NCBI GenBank assembly: GCA_015055665.1
Contig: SVHX01000001.1
Span: forward strand, 1,109 to 65,108
From: Clostridiales bacterium
GTDB taxonomy: Bacteria > Bacillota > Clostridia > Christensenellales > UBA1242
DNA length: 64,000 bases
Direction: 5' to 3'
The notes beneath the pieces were generated by a model that saw only the letters and a program-made list of their open reading frames with translations, did not search any database and was not told the origin of the DNA. The translations under genes were made by a program, and so were the position numbers. Numbering within the stretch: the stretch's first letter is position 1; each line of letters begins with the position of its first letter. Below, one piece after another: positions 1 to 49,412 of this stretch.

Positions 1-1
1 T

Positions 2-637
2 AAAGAATACTATTATTATGTTTGTTCAACCTTTAAAAAGGGTGGCCATAATGCTTGCACAAAACATTCAATACAAACAAATGTTGTGAAAGATGTTGTA
101 TTTGAGGTCTTAAAACAATATGTCAATGTTGCTTTGACAATGAATAACATAATTGACTTTATCAATCAAAGTAAAGAAAGAAATAGTCAAACTGACAAAT
201 TTGAGAAACAACTATCAGCAAAGCACAAAGAAAGAGATAAGGCAAGTAAAATGCTTGTTGATTTGTATCCAGACTTTAAGAATGGACTACTAAATCAAGA
301 CACATATTTAATGTTTAAGGCCAAATATGAACGAGAAATCTTATCAATCAATGAACAAATTGCAGAAATTGAGAATAGAATTGAGCAGATCAAAACTGGC
401 TTAACACAAGAAAATAGGTTTATTTCAAACTTTGTGAAATATCAAAATATTACAGAACTTACAAGAGATATGGTTGTTGAACTTATCAATAACATATACA
501 TCTATGAAGGTGGCAGAATTGAGGTCGAAGTCAAATTTAGAGATGAATACGAAACAGCATTAGAATACATTGAAATCAATAGACAGATCTATGTTGCTGA
601 ACAACAATTTAAACATGCGCAGGTTGCGGTTGTGTAG
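2..637 (+). CDS. Large serine recombinase, C-terminal part (5' end outside the window)
   Basis: The frame is open from nt 2 (KEYYYYVCSTFKKGGHNACTKHS...), upstream of the GTG used in the ORF track. The Cys-rich zinc-ribbon segment and the C-terminal tail (FVKYQNITELTRDMVVELINNIYIYEGGRIEVEVKF) are paralogous to the downstream recombinase (KYYFYCPTYKQSSAVCSKHS; FKKYKNFTTLTREMAVELIKKIKVFEDKRIEVELNF). Confidence 0.8.
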   Translation, partial: KEYYYYVCSTFKKGGHNACTKHSIQTNVVKDVVFEVLKQYVNVALTMNNIIDFINQSKERNSQTDKFEKQLSAKHKERDKASKMLVDLYPDFKNGLLNQDTYLMFKAKYEREILSINEQIAEIENRIEQIKTGLTQENRFISNFVKYQNITELTRDMVVELINNIYIYEGGRIEVEVKFRDEYETALEYIEINRQIYVAEQQFKHAQVAVV

Positions 638-644
638 GTGAAAT

Positions 645-2309
645 ATGGCAAGAACAAGTAGATATATAGATAGTTCCTTAGCGACCGAACACGCATATAA
701 AATATGGAAAACAGCGCTTTATATTAGATTGTCTAGGGAAGACGGTGATAAGGAAGAAAGTGAGAGTATTGTTTCACAAAGAGAAATGTTAATGAAGTAT
801 TTAAGTAATAAGATTGACCTAAGCTTATACAATCTTTACATTGATGATGGCTATTCTGGAACAACCTTTGATAGACCAGCATTTCAAAGATTACTTAACG
901 ATATTGGCGATAAGAAGGTTAATTGTGTTGTGGTAAAAGACCTTTCAAGATTTGGTAGAAACACAACAGAAACAAGTAGATATATTCAAATTGTATTCCC
1001 AATGTTAAATATAAGGTTTATATCAATCCTTGATAATGTTGACAGTTATGAAGACCCAAACTCTATCAATAATCTTGTTGTTCCTTTTAAAAATATCATG
1101 AATGAGGACTATGCAAGAGAAAACTCAAAGAAGGTAAGAACTGCAAGTGATACTTATAGGAAAAAAGGCAAGTTTATTGGAAGTTTTGCTTGTTATGGGT
1201 ATTTAAAAGACCCCGAAGATCATCACAAACTGATTGTGGATAATGAAGCGGCAGACAATGTAAGACTAATATTTGATTTGTATGTTGGGGGAATGACACC
1301 AACTTCTATTGCAAGAAAGCTGAATGAAATGGGTGTTTTAAGTCCTTGTGTCTATAAGCAATCAAAAGGTCTTAAATATCACAATCCAAGTCAAATCAAT
1401 AAAAATAGTTTATGGGCAGATACTACTGTTAGAACTATGTTGAACAACGAAGCTTATATAGGAAGTGTTGTTCAAGGCACCAAAAGAAAGGTGAGTTATA
1501 AATGCAACAAATTCATAACTATACCGAAAGAACATAGAATTACAGTTCAAAACATGCACGAGCCAATAATATCAAAAGAGGTTTTTGAACAAGCACAATC
1601 AATCCTACAAGAAAGGACAAAACAATACTTTGGAACAAACAAAAGAAATGAAGATAGAATTTTGTCAGGTTTGGTTGTTTGTGGTGATTGTAATCATAAT
1701 ATGCGAGTATCAGTCGCAAGTAGTGTAAACCTTAAAGGAAAATATTATTTCTATTGTCCTACATACAAACAATCAAGTGCAGTATGTAGTAAACACTCAA
1801 CTAGAAATGATATATTAGAAACGATAGTATTTGAAGTCTTAAAACAATATGTGTTATTGGCAGTTGATTATGATGAGGTCATTAAGTCATTAGATAAGAA
1901 AAAACCAACTATTATAAAAGATACCAATGATATGATTAAGGAAAAGAAAATTAAAGAACGACAATCCTTAAATCGAACATTAAGTATGTTGTATATGCAA
2001 TATAAGAATGAGAGCATATCTCACGATCAATATCTTGCAGATAAAACTAAGATAGAAGATAAGGTAAAACAACTTGACAATGAGATTATAACTATTTCGC
2101 AAAAAACAAATAATAATGTGTTAAACACACATAATAACTTTGTTAGCACGTTCAAGAAATATAAGAACTTTACAACACTAACCAGAGAAATGGCTGTTGA
2201 ACTTATAAAGAAAATTAAAGTCTTTGAAGATAAAAGAATTGAAGTAGAACTTAATTTTCAAGACGAATTTGAACTTGCTGTCAAATATTTGGAAAGCGAA
2301 TTGCGATAA
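645..2309 (+). CDS. Large serine recombinase (resolvase catalytic domain, recombinase domain, zinc ribbon and coiled-coil / DUF4368-like tail)
   Basis: The N-terminal ALYIRLSREDGD carries the catalytic Ser motif, followed by VVVKDLSRFGRN. The central recombinase domain is followed by a Cys cluster (CGDC...CPTYK...C). An AGGTGA Shine-Dalgarno lies just upstream of the ATG. Confidence 0.9.
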   Translation: MARTSRYIDSSLATEHAYKIWKTALYIRLSREDGDKEESESIVSQREMLMKYLSNKIDLSLYNLYIDDGYSGTTFDRPAFQRLLNDIGDKKVNCVVVKDLSRFGRNTTETSRYIQIVFPMLNIRFISILDNVDSYEDPNSINNLVVPFKNIMNEDYARENSKKVRTASDTYRKKGKFIGSFACYGYLKDPEDHHKLIVDNEAADNVRLIFDLYVGGMTPTSIARKLNEMGVLSPCVYKQSKGLKYHNPSQINKNSLWADTTVRTMLNNEAYIGSVVQGTKRKVSYKCNKFITIPKEHRITVQNMHEPIISKEVFEQAQSILQERTKQYFGTNKRNEDRILSGLVVCGDCNHNMRVSVASSVNLKGKYYFYCPTYKQSSAVCSKHSTRNDILETIVFEVLKQYVLLAVDYDEVIKSLDKKKPTIIKDTNDMIKEKKIKERQSLNRTLSMLYMQYKNESISHDQYLADKTKIEDKVKQLDNEIITISQKTNNNVLNTHNNFVSTFKKYKNFTTLTREMAVELIKKIKVFEDKRIEVELNFQDEFELAVKYLESELR

Positions 2310-2397
2310 GAAATAAGTATAAAACCTTACAAAAATCGCAATTTCGCACCAAAATTTGCGAAATAGTTATATTTTTTTAAAAATTTATGGTCCATAG

Positions 2398-2802
2398 TTG
2401 ACAATGGCACCAGCTGCAATGAGTACATTGGTGGCGCACTTTAGGGATACTAGGACAACTCCTGATGATTATGATTTGATTTTAACCGGCGATCTTGGGA
2501 AGCTAGGAAGTGAAATCTTGCTTGATCTTATGGAACACGAAGGTGTTAAGCTGAAAGAAAATTATAATGATTGTGGACACATGATGTTTAATAATAACCA
2601 AAAGACATATCAGGGAGGTAGTGGGGCTGGTTGTAGTGCTGTAATACTGAATTCATATGTGGTAAAAAAGATGGATGAAGGAAAGTTTAAAAGGGTATTG
2701 TTTGCTCCTACAGGTGCTCTTCTGAGCACAACTAGTAGTCAGCAAGGGGAAACCATACCTGGAATTTGTCATGCTATTGAATTAAGGAGAGTTGATGATT
2801 AA
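2398..2802 (+). pseudogene. spoVAD: spoVAD 3' segment (C-terminal ~134 codons of stage V sporulation protein AD); the gene is split by the upstream element
   Basis: MAPAAMSTLVAHFRDTRTTPDDYDLILTGDLGKLGS...GGSGAGCSAV...APTGALLS matches the C-terminal third of B. subtilis SpoVAD (recalled: GSAMAPAAADT...RTPDDYDLILTGDL...GGSGCACSAV...ATGALLS). The TTG at 2398 is only the first possible codon after a stop, not a credible start. Confidence 0.85.
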
Positions 2803-3167
2803 TGTGGTTGATGTATCTAAAGGTGTTTCTTGTTGGTGGATTTATATGTATGTTGGGGCAGTTGTTGATAATTAAGACCAATATGACCAGTTCAAGAATA
2901 CTAGTGTTGTTTGTTAGCATAGGTGCGATTATGGAGGCGTTTGGTTTATATGATCCGATTGTGAATTTTGCATCTGCGGGGGCAACCGTTCCAATAACGG
3001 GGTTTGGAAGGAGCTTGGCAAAAGGTGCAATAGAGGCTGTTAAAGAGAAGGGGTTGCTAGGTGTTCTTACTGGTGGGTTAACTGCAACCGCTGGAGGTAT
3101 TGCTGCGGCCGTTGCATTTGCGTATTTAATGGCTCTAATCTTTAATAGTAAAACAAAAAAATATTGA
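2802..3167 (+). CDS. spoVAE: Stage V sporulation protein AE (SpoVAEB-type; SpoVAC/SpoVAEB family membrane protein)
   Basis: FLVGGFICMLGQLL...AGATVPITGFG...GVLTGGL is typical of SpoVAEB. Its ATG overlaps the spoVAD stop (TAATG), indicating translational coupling. Confidence 0.9.
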   Translation: MWLMYLKVFLVGGFICMLGQLLIIKTNMTSSRILVLFVSIGAIMEAFGLYDPIVNFASAGATVPITGFGRSLAKGAIEAVKEKGLLGVLTGGLTATAGGIAAAVAFAYLMALIFNSKTKKY

Positions 3168-3266
3168 TAAATATAAGTAAAATGTTATAAATATGCAAAT
3201 AAAATTCCATCCTCTAAACAATATGATGTTAATCATAATAAGGGTAATAAATTAATATATTATTAT

Positions 3267-3953
3267 GTGGGACAGTTATGTGGATTAACCAATATTGCAA
3301 AAAAGTTTTTTGGGTCTAAAAAGAAATTTTTAGGCTTTTTGTCTATACTTATAACAGTTGTGGTAATATTTATAATATTTTCGTATATGGTTAATCCTGT
3401 AATAATGGATACTGTTGAAATTAAGTCTAGAGCACTTGCTACAAGGGCTATGAATAGTTCTGTGGCAGATGTTGTGATGAGCTCAATAATTTATGATGAT
3501 CTTGTTACAATTGTAAGTGATGACTTTGGTAATATTTCTATGATTCAAGCCAATTCTTTGGCAATAAATAACTTGAGCAAGGATTTGGCTCAAACATGCG
3601 AAGAGCGGATTTCTGAGTATGGCAAGGCTGGAGTGTCTGTTCCTTTAGGTACATTTACTGGGATACCGCTTTTTGTAGGTAGAGGGCCAAGAGTTTCAGT
3701 TAAAATGACGCCTATCGGGTCAGTGGTTTGTAAGTTTGTATCTCATTTTGAAACTGCTGGAATTAACCAAACAGTACATAAAATTTATGTTAATGTTAAT
3801 GCAAAGGTTAGTGTTATTATGCCGTTGAGTAGTAGGAGTTTGGAGGCGACTCAGCAGGTCTTGATAAGCGAAAGTGTTATAGTTGGACAAGTACCAGAAG
3901 TTTATTTGCAGTCTGATACGCTTGATACGTTGCTTAACTTTGTTCCATATTGA
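3267..3953 (+). CDS. yunB: Sporulation protein YunB
   Basis: It has an N-terminal TM helix followed by the YunB signature region (VPLGTFTGIPLFVGRGPRVSVKMTPIGSV...FETAGINQTVHKIYVNV...ESVIVGQVPEVY). The start codon (GTG 3267) is uncertain. Confidence 0.8.
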   Translation: MGQLCGLTNIAKKFFGSKKKFLGFLSILITVVVIFIIFSYMVNPVIMDTVEIKSRALATRAMNSSVADVVMSSIIYDDLVTIVSDDFGNISMIQANSLAINNLSKDLAQTCEERISEYGKAGVSVPLGTFTGIPLFVGRGPRVSVKMTPIGSVVCKFVSHFETAGINQTVHKIYVNVNAKVSVIMPLSSRSLEATQQVLISESVIVGQVPEVYLQSDTLDTLLNFVPY

Positions 3954-47636: not shown

Positions 47637-48695
47637 ATGGATCAAAATTATTTTGTACAGCGAGATGAAGATAATATTCTTAAGCTTAGAGAGATTAGGC
47701 GCACATTGCCTGCTTTCTGTGGAGAGTTCTTTCGAGGAATAGAGCCTAATTCGACACCCCTAACCCGCCTTGGATATGCGAGAGATCTTAAGATTTTTTT
47801 TGATTTTCTGGTTACAGAAACAGAAGAGTTTTATGGCAAGCCTATTCTTCAATTTGATATAGAGGATCTAAACAAGCTTACATCCACGCACCTAGAAATG
47901 TTCCTTGAATATATATCGCTGTATAGAGTTAATGGCAAGACGGTTAAAAATGGCGAGAAAGCCAAGTGTCGTAAACTTAGTAGCATAAGAGCTATGCTTA
48001 AGTACTTCTACAAGAAGGAAGCAATTAAATCTAATGTCGCATCTAAGATAGACACTCCTAAGATACATGAATCTCAGATTATTAGGCTGGAATTAGATGA
48101 GGTTGGCAAAGTTCTTGATCTAGCCGAAACTGGTCAGGATATGACCAAGATGCAACAAGGATTTCACAAACACACTCAAGCTCGAGATTATGCAATGTTG
48201 TCACTTTTTCTTGGAACTGGTATTCGTATTTCCGAGTGTGTCGGACTTAATATAGATGATTTTGATTTCAAGCAGAACGCCTTTAAGGTAACTCGCAAAG
48301 GTGGCAATAGAGTAATACTCTATTTTAACGAAGAAGTAGCGGATGCCCTACAAAATTACATATTAGAACGCAAAAATGTCAAAGCTCAACCAGGTAGCGA
48401 AAAAGCCCTATTCTTAAGCCTACAGAACCGAAGAATATCTTGTCGTGCCGTAGAAAATCTGGTTAAGAAGTATAGCAAAATTATTAACCCACTTAAGAAA
48501 ATTACTCCACATAAATTGCGTAGCACCTTTGGTACTAACCTATATCGCGAAACCAATGATATATATATCGTTGCGGATGTCTTAGGACACAAAGATGTTA
48601 ATACAACTCGTAAACACTATGCTGCAATTTCGGAGGATATCAGAAGAAGTGCTGCTCAGAAAGTTAGGTTTAGAGAATCTCAAAAAGTTGAATAA
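47637..48695 (+). CDS. Tyrosine site-specific recombinase (XerC/XerD-like integrase family)
   Basis: It has an N-terminal SAM-like core-binding domain (TRLGYARDLKIFFDFL). The C-terminal catalytic domain has R (GTGIRISE), HKLRSTF, LGHKDVNTTRKHY (the H-x-x-R...H...Y pattern). An AGAGGGG RBS precedes the start. Confidence 0.85.
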   Translation: MDQNYFVQRDEDNILKLREIRRTLPAFCGEFFRGIEPNSTPLTRLGYARDLKIFFDFLVTETEEFYGKPILQFDIEDLNKLTSTHLEMFLEYISLYRVNGKTVKNGEKAKCRKLSSIRAMLKYFYKKEAIKSNVASKIDTPKIHESQIIRLELDEVGKVLDLAETGQDMTKMQQGFHKHTQARDYAMLSLFLGTGIRISECVGLNIDDFDFKQNAFKVTRKGGNRVILYFNEEVADALQNYILERKNVKAQPGSEKALFLSLQNRRISCRAVENLVKKYSKIINPLKKITPHKLRSTFGTNLYRETNDIYIVADVLGHKDVNTTRKHYAAISEDIRRSAAQKVRFRESQKVE

Positions 48696-48776: not shown

Positions 48777-49412
48777 ATGCCTAAGTATTCTAAAGAAGAT
48801 CAACTATATGATTATATAAGAAGTTATAAGAACGAGAACGGTTTTCCCCCTACTATAAGAGAGATGTGCAAGGCTATTAAGGTAAGGTCTACAAGTACAA
48901 TTTTCTATTATCTTAATAAACTTGAGAATTCTAATAAAATTAAGAAAAATCCTAATAAAAATAGGGCTCTTGAAATTGTCGAAAGCGAGAAAAATATTAA
49001 TATACCAACTATTAGCACCATAGCTGAGAATATTGATAATCTTACTAGAATTCCTGTTCTTGGAACTGTTACTTGTGGAGAGCCAATTCTTGCTGTTCAG
49101 ACTAATGAAGAATACTTTATGGTATCTCCTACATTATTCAAAGGCAATGACTTATTTATGCTAACCGCCAAGGGTGACAGTATGATCAATGCTGGAATAT
49201 ATGATGGTGACAAGATTGTCCTTAAGCAACAGTCGTATGCTGATAATGGAGATATTGTTGCAGCACTAATTGAAGATAGTGCTACAATTAAGCGTTTTTA
49301 TAAGGAAGACGGCCATTACAGATTACAACCAGAAAATGATACAATGTCCCCTATTATCGTGGATAATGTACAGATTATTGGTAAAGTTGTTGGACTTGTT
49401 CGTAAATTCTAA
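48777..49412 (+). CDS. lexA: LexA repressor
   Basis: It has an N-terminal wHTH (GFPPTIREMCKAIKVRSTSTIFYYLNKLE) and a C-terminal S24 peptidase domain (GDSMINAGIYDGDKIV...ATIKRFY). Confidence 0.95.
   Translation: MPKYSKEDQLYDYIRSYKNENGFPPTIREMCKAIKVRSTSTIFYYLNKLENSNKIKKNPNKNRALEIVESEKNINIPTISTIAENIDNLTRIPVLGTVTCGEPILAVQTNEEYFMVSPTLFKGNDLFMLTAKGDSMINAGIYDGDKIVLKQQSYADNGDIVAALIEDSATIKRFYKEDGHYRLQPENDTMSPIIVDNVQIIGKVVGLVRKF

Follow-up and report, generated by a model that had tools for sequence, protein, structure and literature searches.

The characterised intervening elements of sporulation genes all interrupt genes that act in the mother cell, the yabG case included (PMC5595907 and other literature), and the logic of these elements is that excision in the mother cell is safe since that genome is discarded. 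The skin element in sigK (recombinase SpoIVCA), SPbeta in spsM (SprA/SprB), skinCd of C. difficile and yin in yabG of C. botulinum each lie inside a sporulation gene and have a large serine recombinase (LSR) gene close to one of their ends; they are (defective) prophages in sigma-E or sigma-K mother-cell genes and excise in the dying cell. For SPbeta and skinCd the literature describes a constitutive recombinase with a small, separate factor that controls excision. The gin element (~28 kb) splits gerE in Bacillus cereus ATCC 10987, and its excision is experimentally known to be sporulation-specific and to need GirC and GirX (PMC5595907). Here we describe an element that splits spoVAD, identified at the start of a stretch of 64,000 nucleotides from a Clostridiales bacterium (GCA_015055665.1, contig SVHX01000001.1, positions 1,109 to 65,108 of the forward strand), hereafter the window. 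In B. subtilis and C. difficile the spoVA operon is a sigma-G operon expressed in the forespore; taking forespore expression over from these species, the target would not be a mother-cell gene, unlike that of every described intervening element. We found no paper that connects spoVAD with a serine recombinase or with an intervening element, nor one that mentions DUF6870, a family encoded next to the recombinases; the spoVAD-targeting family of integrative elements, with its shared site across many gut Clostridia, is new and apparently undescribed. The reading we favour, to which we give slightly better than an even chance, is that window positions 1-2411 are the right end of a horizontally mobile, non-phage integrative element of ~28-50 kb that integrates and occasionally excises with no developmental programme. 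The first-pass annotation of the window, made from the sequence alone, had noted the restriction of known elements to mother-cell genes, in agreement with the literature, and had proposed a skin-like element.

The window opens inside rec1 (1-637, + strand; coding 2-637), the first of two tandem LSR genes, and holds its C-terminal 211 amino acids with the Pfam domains Zn_ribbon_recom and DUF4368. The full gene (566 amino acids) is found with 100% identity on a JGI metagenome contig (L001:45-1745). The second gene, rec2 (645-2309, +), starts 8 bp past rec1 as in an operon and encodes a complete LSR of 554 amino acids with Resolvase, Recombinase, Zn_ribbon_recom and DUF4368 domains. The two proteins are 45% identical, both retain the catalytic motif YIRLSRED (at residue 23 in rec1), and together they show the Recombinase domain, zinc ribbon and catalytic motif that typify the LSR class; Pfam thereby substantiates the initial assignment of the terminal genes (2-637 and 645-2309) as two large serine recombinases. 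rec2 is the final gene of the element, and the distance from this terminal pair to the crossover is 95 bp. A terminator scan found a hairpin, ATTTCGCA..TGCGAAAT, with a T-run 3' of rec2 (2341-2380, +), in an intergenic stretch with only two differences from the relative L018. Comparison of attR, attL and attB places attR at 2386-2435 (+), with an element arm TATGGTCCATAGTTGACA (2386-2403, +), a shared core ATGGCACC (2404-2411, +) whose CC at 2410-2411 is the putative crossover dinucleotide, and a spoVAD-side arm.

The host gene resumes at the core. The spoVAD 3' fragment (2404-2802, +) comprises the last 132 codons and the stop, or a 134-codon open reading frame (ORF) if counted from 2398, with an in-frame TAG immediately upstream at 2395-2397. 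It matches positions 200-328 of 329 of the Pfam SpoVAD profile (E = 3.5e-54) and aligns, via P0335, with residues 209-333 of the solved SpoVAD 3LMA; the coding sequence of this sporulation gene is cut after codon 208 of ~336. spoVAE (2802-3167, +) is intact (121 amino acids; positions 2-117 of 117 of Pfam SpoVAC_SpoVAEB) and shares one base with the spoVAD stop codon, which couples it translationally to the fragment, so that the initial description of a spoVAD 3' end followed by an intact, coupled spoVAE stands. The operon order in relatives is spoVAC-spoVAD-spoVAE, and neither an N-terminal spoVAD nor a second spoVA operon (spoVAC, spoVAD or spoVAE) occurs within the 64-kb window. The far end of the element lies outside the window and was seen in relatives only.

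A genome scan with rec2 returned 12 loci in metagenome-assembled genomes (MAGs) of Oscillospiraceae, Eubacteriales, Faecousia, Avispirillum and unclassified Clostridia, 10 of them informative in that no contig end cuts them. At all 10 a spoVAD C-fragment has a recombinase (37-84% identical) 0.07-5 kb ahead of it; the fragment begins at the same residue and is free of frameshifts, with spoVAE next except in L010 and L017. The closest relative is MAG RGIG3907 (GCA_017453125.1), with identities to the window of 91.5% for rec1, 84% for rec2, 85% for SpoVAD-C and 90% for SpoVAE. An N-terminal query recovered its N-fragment, P0216 (215 amino acids), at ~47.9 kb on contig JAFTKS010000012.1, preceded by spoIIAA-spoIIAB-sigF, a 767-amino-acid gene and spoVAC, and in the orientation of rec1, which fills positions 1-1200 of the same contig. 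The end of rec2, attR, spoVAD-C and spoVAE are on the next contig (L018), which gives an element of ~50 kb. In GCA_964400145.1 both spoVAD halves are on one contig, 28.2 kb apart, and the right end of the element carries a DUF6870 gene and LSR genes of 566 and 527 amino acids. In both relatives the N-terminal 208 codons face the same way at the opposite end of the element, directly after or near spoVAC. Two TMEM164-family genes separate spoVAC from spoVAD in GCA_964400145.1 (L030 7357-10636), showing that spoVA layout varies in the group.

Rejoining was tested on the relatives and on a chimera of relative N and window C parts. The two RGIG3907 halves (L019 and L018) join in silico into an intact 336-amino-acid SpoVAD reading ..NNMGAAMAPSAMSTL.. 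as in intact alleles; the chimera is in frame (337 amino acids), and L030/L032 join in frame at CACC by inspection. The proposal that spoVAD is split by insertion rather than truncated by deletion is borne out in these relatives on both counts, since the 5' 208 codons are present at the far end of the ~50-kb and 28-kb elements and the relative's own halves restore a 336-amino-acid ORF, which makes the insertion reversible in principle.

The first-pass annotation had also suggested comparison with uninterrupted relatives, and the near relatives L027 and L028 do read through the junction as GCNGCNATGGCACCAGCNGCNATGAGT, encoding ..GAAMAPAAMS... In five hosts attL reads ..GCNGCNATGGCNCC followed by (C)GTTATTGCTATAATAGGACCATAGACC... 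or a near variant, and attR of the window reads TTTATGGTCCATAGTTGACA-ATGGCACC-AGCTGCAATGAGT. The core is ATGGCACC in the window-type subgroup and CACC alone in L030/L032; in more distant members the element arm closes with ..CTTGACAnnnnC and host sequence continues from CC-NGC-NGC, and the element-arm consensus TATGGT..A..CTTGACA is kept in most family loci. The reconstructed attP, TATGGTCCATAGTTGACAATGGCA-CC-CGTTATTGCTATAATAGGACCATA, is an imperfect 24+2+24 inverted repeat with outer boxes TATGGTCC/GGACCATA and symmetry at 14 of 24 arm positions, counted by eye. From this arrangement of the arms we infer that strands are exchanged at the CC of the two codons for Ala-Pro within NNMGAAMAPAA, a conserved spoVAD motif. 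The motif is also present in the solved Bacillus SpoVAD (DMGSAMAPAA), and its conservation even there explains how one recombinase lineage can use the site across distant hosts. The predicted attB is thus a ~50-bp stretch of spoVAD encoding the near-universal NNMGAAM-AP-AA, and on the source genome of the window attL is expected to read spoVAC-spoVAD(1-208)-..ATGGCACC + GYNATTGMTATAATAGGACCATAG. The TTGACA at the junction was considered as an outward promoter and rejected, as a matching -10 is absent and the hexamer belongs to the conserved arm for recombinase binding.

The split locus could in principle have arisen through misassembly or misbinning, with a mobile-element contig joined to a truncated spoVAD; metagenome contigs often break at element ends, and one odd join occurs elsewhere (L033, described below). 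However, L001 was assembled independently with the identical junction and reproduces the order rec1-rec2-spoVAD'-spoVAE-yunB with 100% protein identity, and the architecture recurs in unrelated MAGs with diverged sequences. An identical rec2 protein is encoded by five more contigs from other JGI/ENA samples, which end before the junction or were examined no further. The independent junction in L001, together with the identical rec2 protein in at least six JGI/ENA samples, indicates that the split is no accident of assembly, and we regard an artefact as exceedingly improbable. The organism is represented in JGI samples 3300032167, 3300018878, 3300018475 and 3300018494 and in ENA samples ERZ27248370 and ERZ27248436. 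The last gene in this order, yunB (3267-3953, +; Pfam Spore_YunB), is an intact sporulation gene of the host context, outside the element; synteny around it is kept in L018, L007 and L032, and downstream follow a class-V aminotransferase gene and thiI.

To assess what kind of element this is, we inspected ~20 kb of the RGIG3907 element, 20 kb of the 28-kb one and, from three more distant members, 7-10 kb at the right end. Three PHROG scans over ~30 kb of two closely related elements recovered no phage structural families; the only matches were an anti-repressor-like Bro-N protein, XRE repressors, a primase, a C5 methylase and families of unknown function. Pfam likewise found no capsid, tail or terminase domains in the inspected parts of these and two further members, and IMG/VR holds a single 4.5-kb fragment of such an element (L029). 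Further Pfam content in family members includes DUF3846, DUF4313, BspA-type leucine-rich repeat proteins, YpsA, RepA_N and NikA-like proteins, along with type I restriction-modification, Mrr, an AbiEii-like ATPase and ArsP. The NikA-like, RepA_N and primase genes are mobilisation or replication genes; inspection of these parts revealed neither a relaxase nor type IV secretion genes. A prophage or an integrative and conjugative element had been offered as one possibility in the first-pass annotation; the mobile integrative part of that suggestion holds, and the prophage part finds no support in these scans of the inspected parts or in the lone IMG/VR fragment.

The best named relative of rec1 is TndX of Tn5397 (~32% identity over 93% of rec1), alongside unnamed Oscillospiraceae recombinases, and the best solved match of rec2 is SprA/YokA of SPbeta, followed by the catalytic domain of TnpX, with TP901-1 and A118 also matching. 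The spoVAD elements resemble Tn5397 and Tn4451 of clostridia and enterococci, to whose TndX and TnpX, the closest named recombinases, the C-terminal DUF4368 match extends. TndX and TnpX each act alone and choose their targets loosely around a GA dinucleotide. Unlike those transposons, the present family has a two-recombinase operon, a DUF6870 gene always placed first and one specific spoVAD codon pair as target. A tandem LSR operon that moves a non-phage island into a conserved gene is also found in staphylococcal SCCmec (CcrA/CcrB), for which no directionality factor is known in the literature; SCCmec, however, inserts at the 3' end of rlmH without destroying the gene, and differs in host group and cargo. 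The likeness to gin (PMC5595907) is close, in that both are non-phage, split a sporulation gene, carry several serine recombinase genes (two in an operon) and share a short junction core with precise rejoining. The differences are that the target here is forespore spoVAD rather than mother-cell gerE, that excision here is predicted only, and that the spoVAD family spans many Clostridia while gin is confined to few B. cereus strains. Compared with skin and SPbeta, the inspected parts of the spoVAD elements have no recognisable phage structural genes, and the target is needed inside the forespore.

A DUF6870 gene lies immediately 5' of the recombinase in every member checked by Pfam or tblastn. 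By sequence, the DUF6870 protein matched none of the solved directionality factors. DUF6870-recombinase modules are also present at other, non-sporulation sites, which indicates that the spoVAD-targeting group is one branch of a wider family. In Vescimonas fastidiosa MM35 (L035; NZ_AP023416.1 655264-662567) a DUF6870 gene is followed by five tandem genes annotated as 'recombinase family', and that element ends beside a barstar gene and spoIIID, the latter a mother-cell sporulation regulator, on the opposite strand.

Several comparisons show that the elements have been exchanged between species. When the window (or L001) is compared with RGIG3907, synonymous divergence (dS) amounts to 0.47 in rec1 and 0.64 in the C-terminus of rec2, against 1.5 to saturation in spoVAD-C, spoVAE, yunB, the aminotransferase gene and thiI. 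In L029 rec1 is 81% and rec2 70% identical, whereas the adjoining spoVAD C-fragment is only ~55% identical to the SpoVAD sequences compared. The left 77-nt arm (L019 10625-10700; the same in L023-L026) is nearly identical across hosts whose five SpoVAD N-fragments clearly differ (79-85% identical to a common query). The insertion seen in the window does not go back to an ancient ancestor. For that reason the low dN/dS of the split halves was discarded as a test of retained function, since the element is younger than the host split and the ratio is therefore uninformative. Three of the four short attL metagenome contigs (L023, L024 and L026) end ~45-60 bp past the stop codon of the N-fragment, probably reflecting a repeat common to many elements in one sample.

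Prevalence was estimated from recombinase-anchored loci, junction tails and cluster contents. That homologues of the C-fragment are nearly all ~130 amino acids long was discarded as evidence, as the protein searches returned hits only up to ~1.75x query length, which put full-length SpoVAD beyond their reach; a second such search, with a 93-amino-acid query, gave no hit above 162 amino acids. With a 134-amino-acid N-side query, 114 of 118 hits end within 25 residues past ..MAP, and most of the tails read xIxIIG(P/I/L), the translated GGACCATA arm, and so derive from the element. Many of these hits are full ORFs of 209-215 amino acids on contigs of up to 279 kb, and the same junction is found in more than 100 distinct clusters of N-terminal fragments. 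Six of the 10 clusters checked (90% identity) hold both split and full-length SpoVAD (329-341 amino acids), and an intact locus (L033) and a split one (L034) share 99.4% DNA identity up to the core. The mixed clusters and this pair indicate that insertion is frequent and polymorphic within species.

The L033 locus is itself unusual. In GCA_947631005.1 (L033 1736-3948) an intact 340-amino-acid spoVAD begins 27 bp downstream of a DUF6870 gene and an LSR gene truncated at ~residue 395, with no spoVAC between the truncated LSR gene and spoVAD. The 99.4% identical strain (L034 9327-10666) carries the split allele with different upstream genes, encoding TerD and a VirD4-like coupling protein. The L033 breakpoint shares GCTCGAAGAGGAGTAA, and the arrangement represents either a MAG chimera or a microhomology rearrangement.

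Expression signals within the element point to independence from the host operon. A clear terminator lies ~120 nt past attL in RGIG3907 and, given the hairpin 3' of rec2, the element would be insulated by terminators at both ends. Read-through from the host promoter into an excision gene at the left end was considered and rejected on account of this strong terminator. Upstream of the recombinase operon an extended -10, TGnTATAAT, is set within a long hairpin followed by Ts (L012 9880-9945, L032 6468-6540, L029 448-522, L011 9915-9985 and the first bases of L001-L003). The hairpin is conserved with a few compensatory changes, two compensatory pair changes being present in L011. It looks like a terminator for transcription of the DUF6870 gene whose loop houses the recombinase promoter, an arrangement that implies housekeeping-type (sigma-A-like) expression of the recombinases. 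Several metagenome contigs begin inside this hairpin.

These observations suggest a model for a mobile element that uses spoVAD as its attB. In the integrated state spoVAD would be null, as the N-terminal 208 codons meet a stop 7-8 codons inside the element and then the terminator. The C-fragment and spoVAE would be cut off from the forespore promoter upstream of spoVAC, switching off SpoVA dipicolinate import. No Shine-Dalgarno sequence was found ahead of the spoVAD 3' fragment and no promoter-like site was found in a scan of the + strand from 1540 to 3462, so that an integrated element should leave the cell with no SpoVAD and a silent spoVAE. The housekeeping-type extended -10 promoter would drive the recombinase operon, whose products would probably carry out integration as well as precise excision, by analogy with TndX, TnpX or CcrAB, with the DUF6870 protein encoded just upstream as a candidate modulator. 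The interruption would then be reversible at the level of the population rather than programmed in a terminal cell, and stochastic integration and excision would yield the polymorphism observed within species. The element may persist because spoVAD is dispensable for vegetative growth and needed only in sporulation. Clostridial spores without dipicolinate stay viable, as in spoVA mutants of C. perfringens and C. difficile.

A permanent interruption might alternatively be harmless, if a second spoVA operon elsewhere in the genome compensates or the two fragments work as a split protein. Extra spoVA operons are carried on mobile elements in Bacillus and are reported in the literature on islands of gut Firmicutes, and the first codon of the C-fragment is a native Met. 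Against this, the window holds no second spoVAC, spoVAD or spoVAE; the C-fragment stands behind a terminator with neither ribosome-binding site nor promoter, the N-fragment is 28-50 kb distant, and there is no sign that the halves assemble. We consider this explanation improbable.

Several points weigh against a mobile element with no developmental role. Its very wide occurrence in genomes with intact spo0A, sigF, spoIIAA/AB, spoVAC, spoVAE and yunB would be somewhat unexpected for a plain knock-out, as would the frameshift-free C-fragments at all 10 recombinase-anchored loci; both fit a mechanism that restores spoVAD when needed. The junction of the excised circle (attP), TTGACAATGGCNCCNGYNATHGMNATHATHGG, had 0 hits in JGI metagenome contigs (241 million metagenome records), and the empty site encoding AAMAPAAMSTLVAHFRD, specific to the species of the window, had 0 hits in the metagenome scan, negatives that are weak as minor variants are rarely assembled. 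Phage or conjugation modules may lie in the remainder of either element, ~28 kb in RGIG3907 and 8 kb in the 28-kb one. Finally, any attL of the window's own genome would lie outside the window, and the closest N-fragments derive from other samples.

The main alternative is programmed excision in the forespore, which would make this a true intervening element in a germ-line gene, with the circle either kept and re-integrated or lost. An excision factor made under sigma-F or sigma-G, for which the DUF6870 protein is a candidate, would release the element and restore spoVAD-spoVAE in time for the uptake of dipicolinate. The released circle would remain in the forespore, which does not divide, perhaps aided by the primase and RepA_N genes. 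At germination the constitutive recombinase alone would re-integrate it, or its loss would leave element-free spores. Every LSR element tested that splits a sporulation gene (skin, SPbeta, vfbin, vrin and gin) excises during sporulation, and the insertion is very widespread where other sporulation genes are intact. Both spoVAD halves are intact wherever inspected, and they rejoin precisely and in frame. As in SPbeta SprA/SprB and skinCd, a constitutive recombinase is accompanied by a small neighbour gene with a transcript of its own; the replication genes could sustain a circle, and intact alleles within species would be expected from germ-line loss. A precedent for conditional excision in non-terminal cells is active lysogeny at comK in Listeria monocytogenes, in which a prophage splits the gene, excises and re-integrates; it resembles this model, with the differences that it is a functional phage with another integrase type and no link to sporulation.

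Other evidence speaks against such a programme. No sporulation-sigma promoter was recognised by eye upstream of DUF6870, the recombinases or spoVAC, a result that in AT-rich DNA is weak either way, and read-through from spoVA into the element would be stopped by the terminator past attL. The absence of the attP junction from the metagenome records counts here too. The elements are clearly mobile horizontally with variable cargo, unlike domesticated remnants, and DUF6870-LSR modules occupy non-sporulation sites as well. TndX/TnpX-type recombinases are not known to need a directionality factor, and the literature describes the same for the Ccr recombinases of SCCmec. Programmed forespore excision is therefore a tentative alternative, and its specific form as a reversible germ-line switch, with forespore excision, a circle held in the dormant spore and re-integration by constitutive recombinases at germination, is a shade more doubtful still. 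The skin-like excision first proposed for the locus thus finds no support in non-phage mobile islands with presence/absence within species, a housekeeping-type promoter and TndX/TnpX-like recombinases, and we retain the mobile integrative element as the preferred account.

Elsewhere in the window, an uninterrupted ORF of 9,584 amino acids (9797-38551, +) has no Pfam match at E <= 1e-4 when scanned in three pieces. Its neighbourhood is ordinary chromosomal, with rny, rnhA, an ABC transporter, lexA, miaA, mutSL, recA and ftsK. A tyrosine recombinase gene of the Phage_integrase family (47637-48695, +; 352 amino acids) lies directly upstream of lexA (48777-49412, +) and may represent either a housekeeping recombinase of the Xer type or the border of a further element.

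Our results describe a whole family of elements that hit one codon pair of a forespore-acting gene in many uncultured gut Clostridia that otherwise keep their sporulation genes. They also yield a defined attB/attP pair, as well as a conserved DUF6870-recombinase module that is a candidate integrase/directionality-factor pair. Were the germ-line switch true, a forespore gene would for the first time be seen to harbour an intervening element, and developmental rearrangement would not be restricted to the terminal mother cell. Either the carriers tolerate or switch the loss of dipicolinate import, in which case a mobile element would determine spore quality and transmission in gut communities, or the element leaves the germ-line genome and returns to it, which would represent a new kind of developmental rearrangement.

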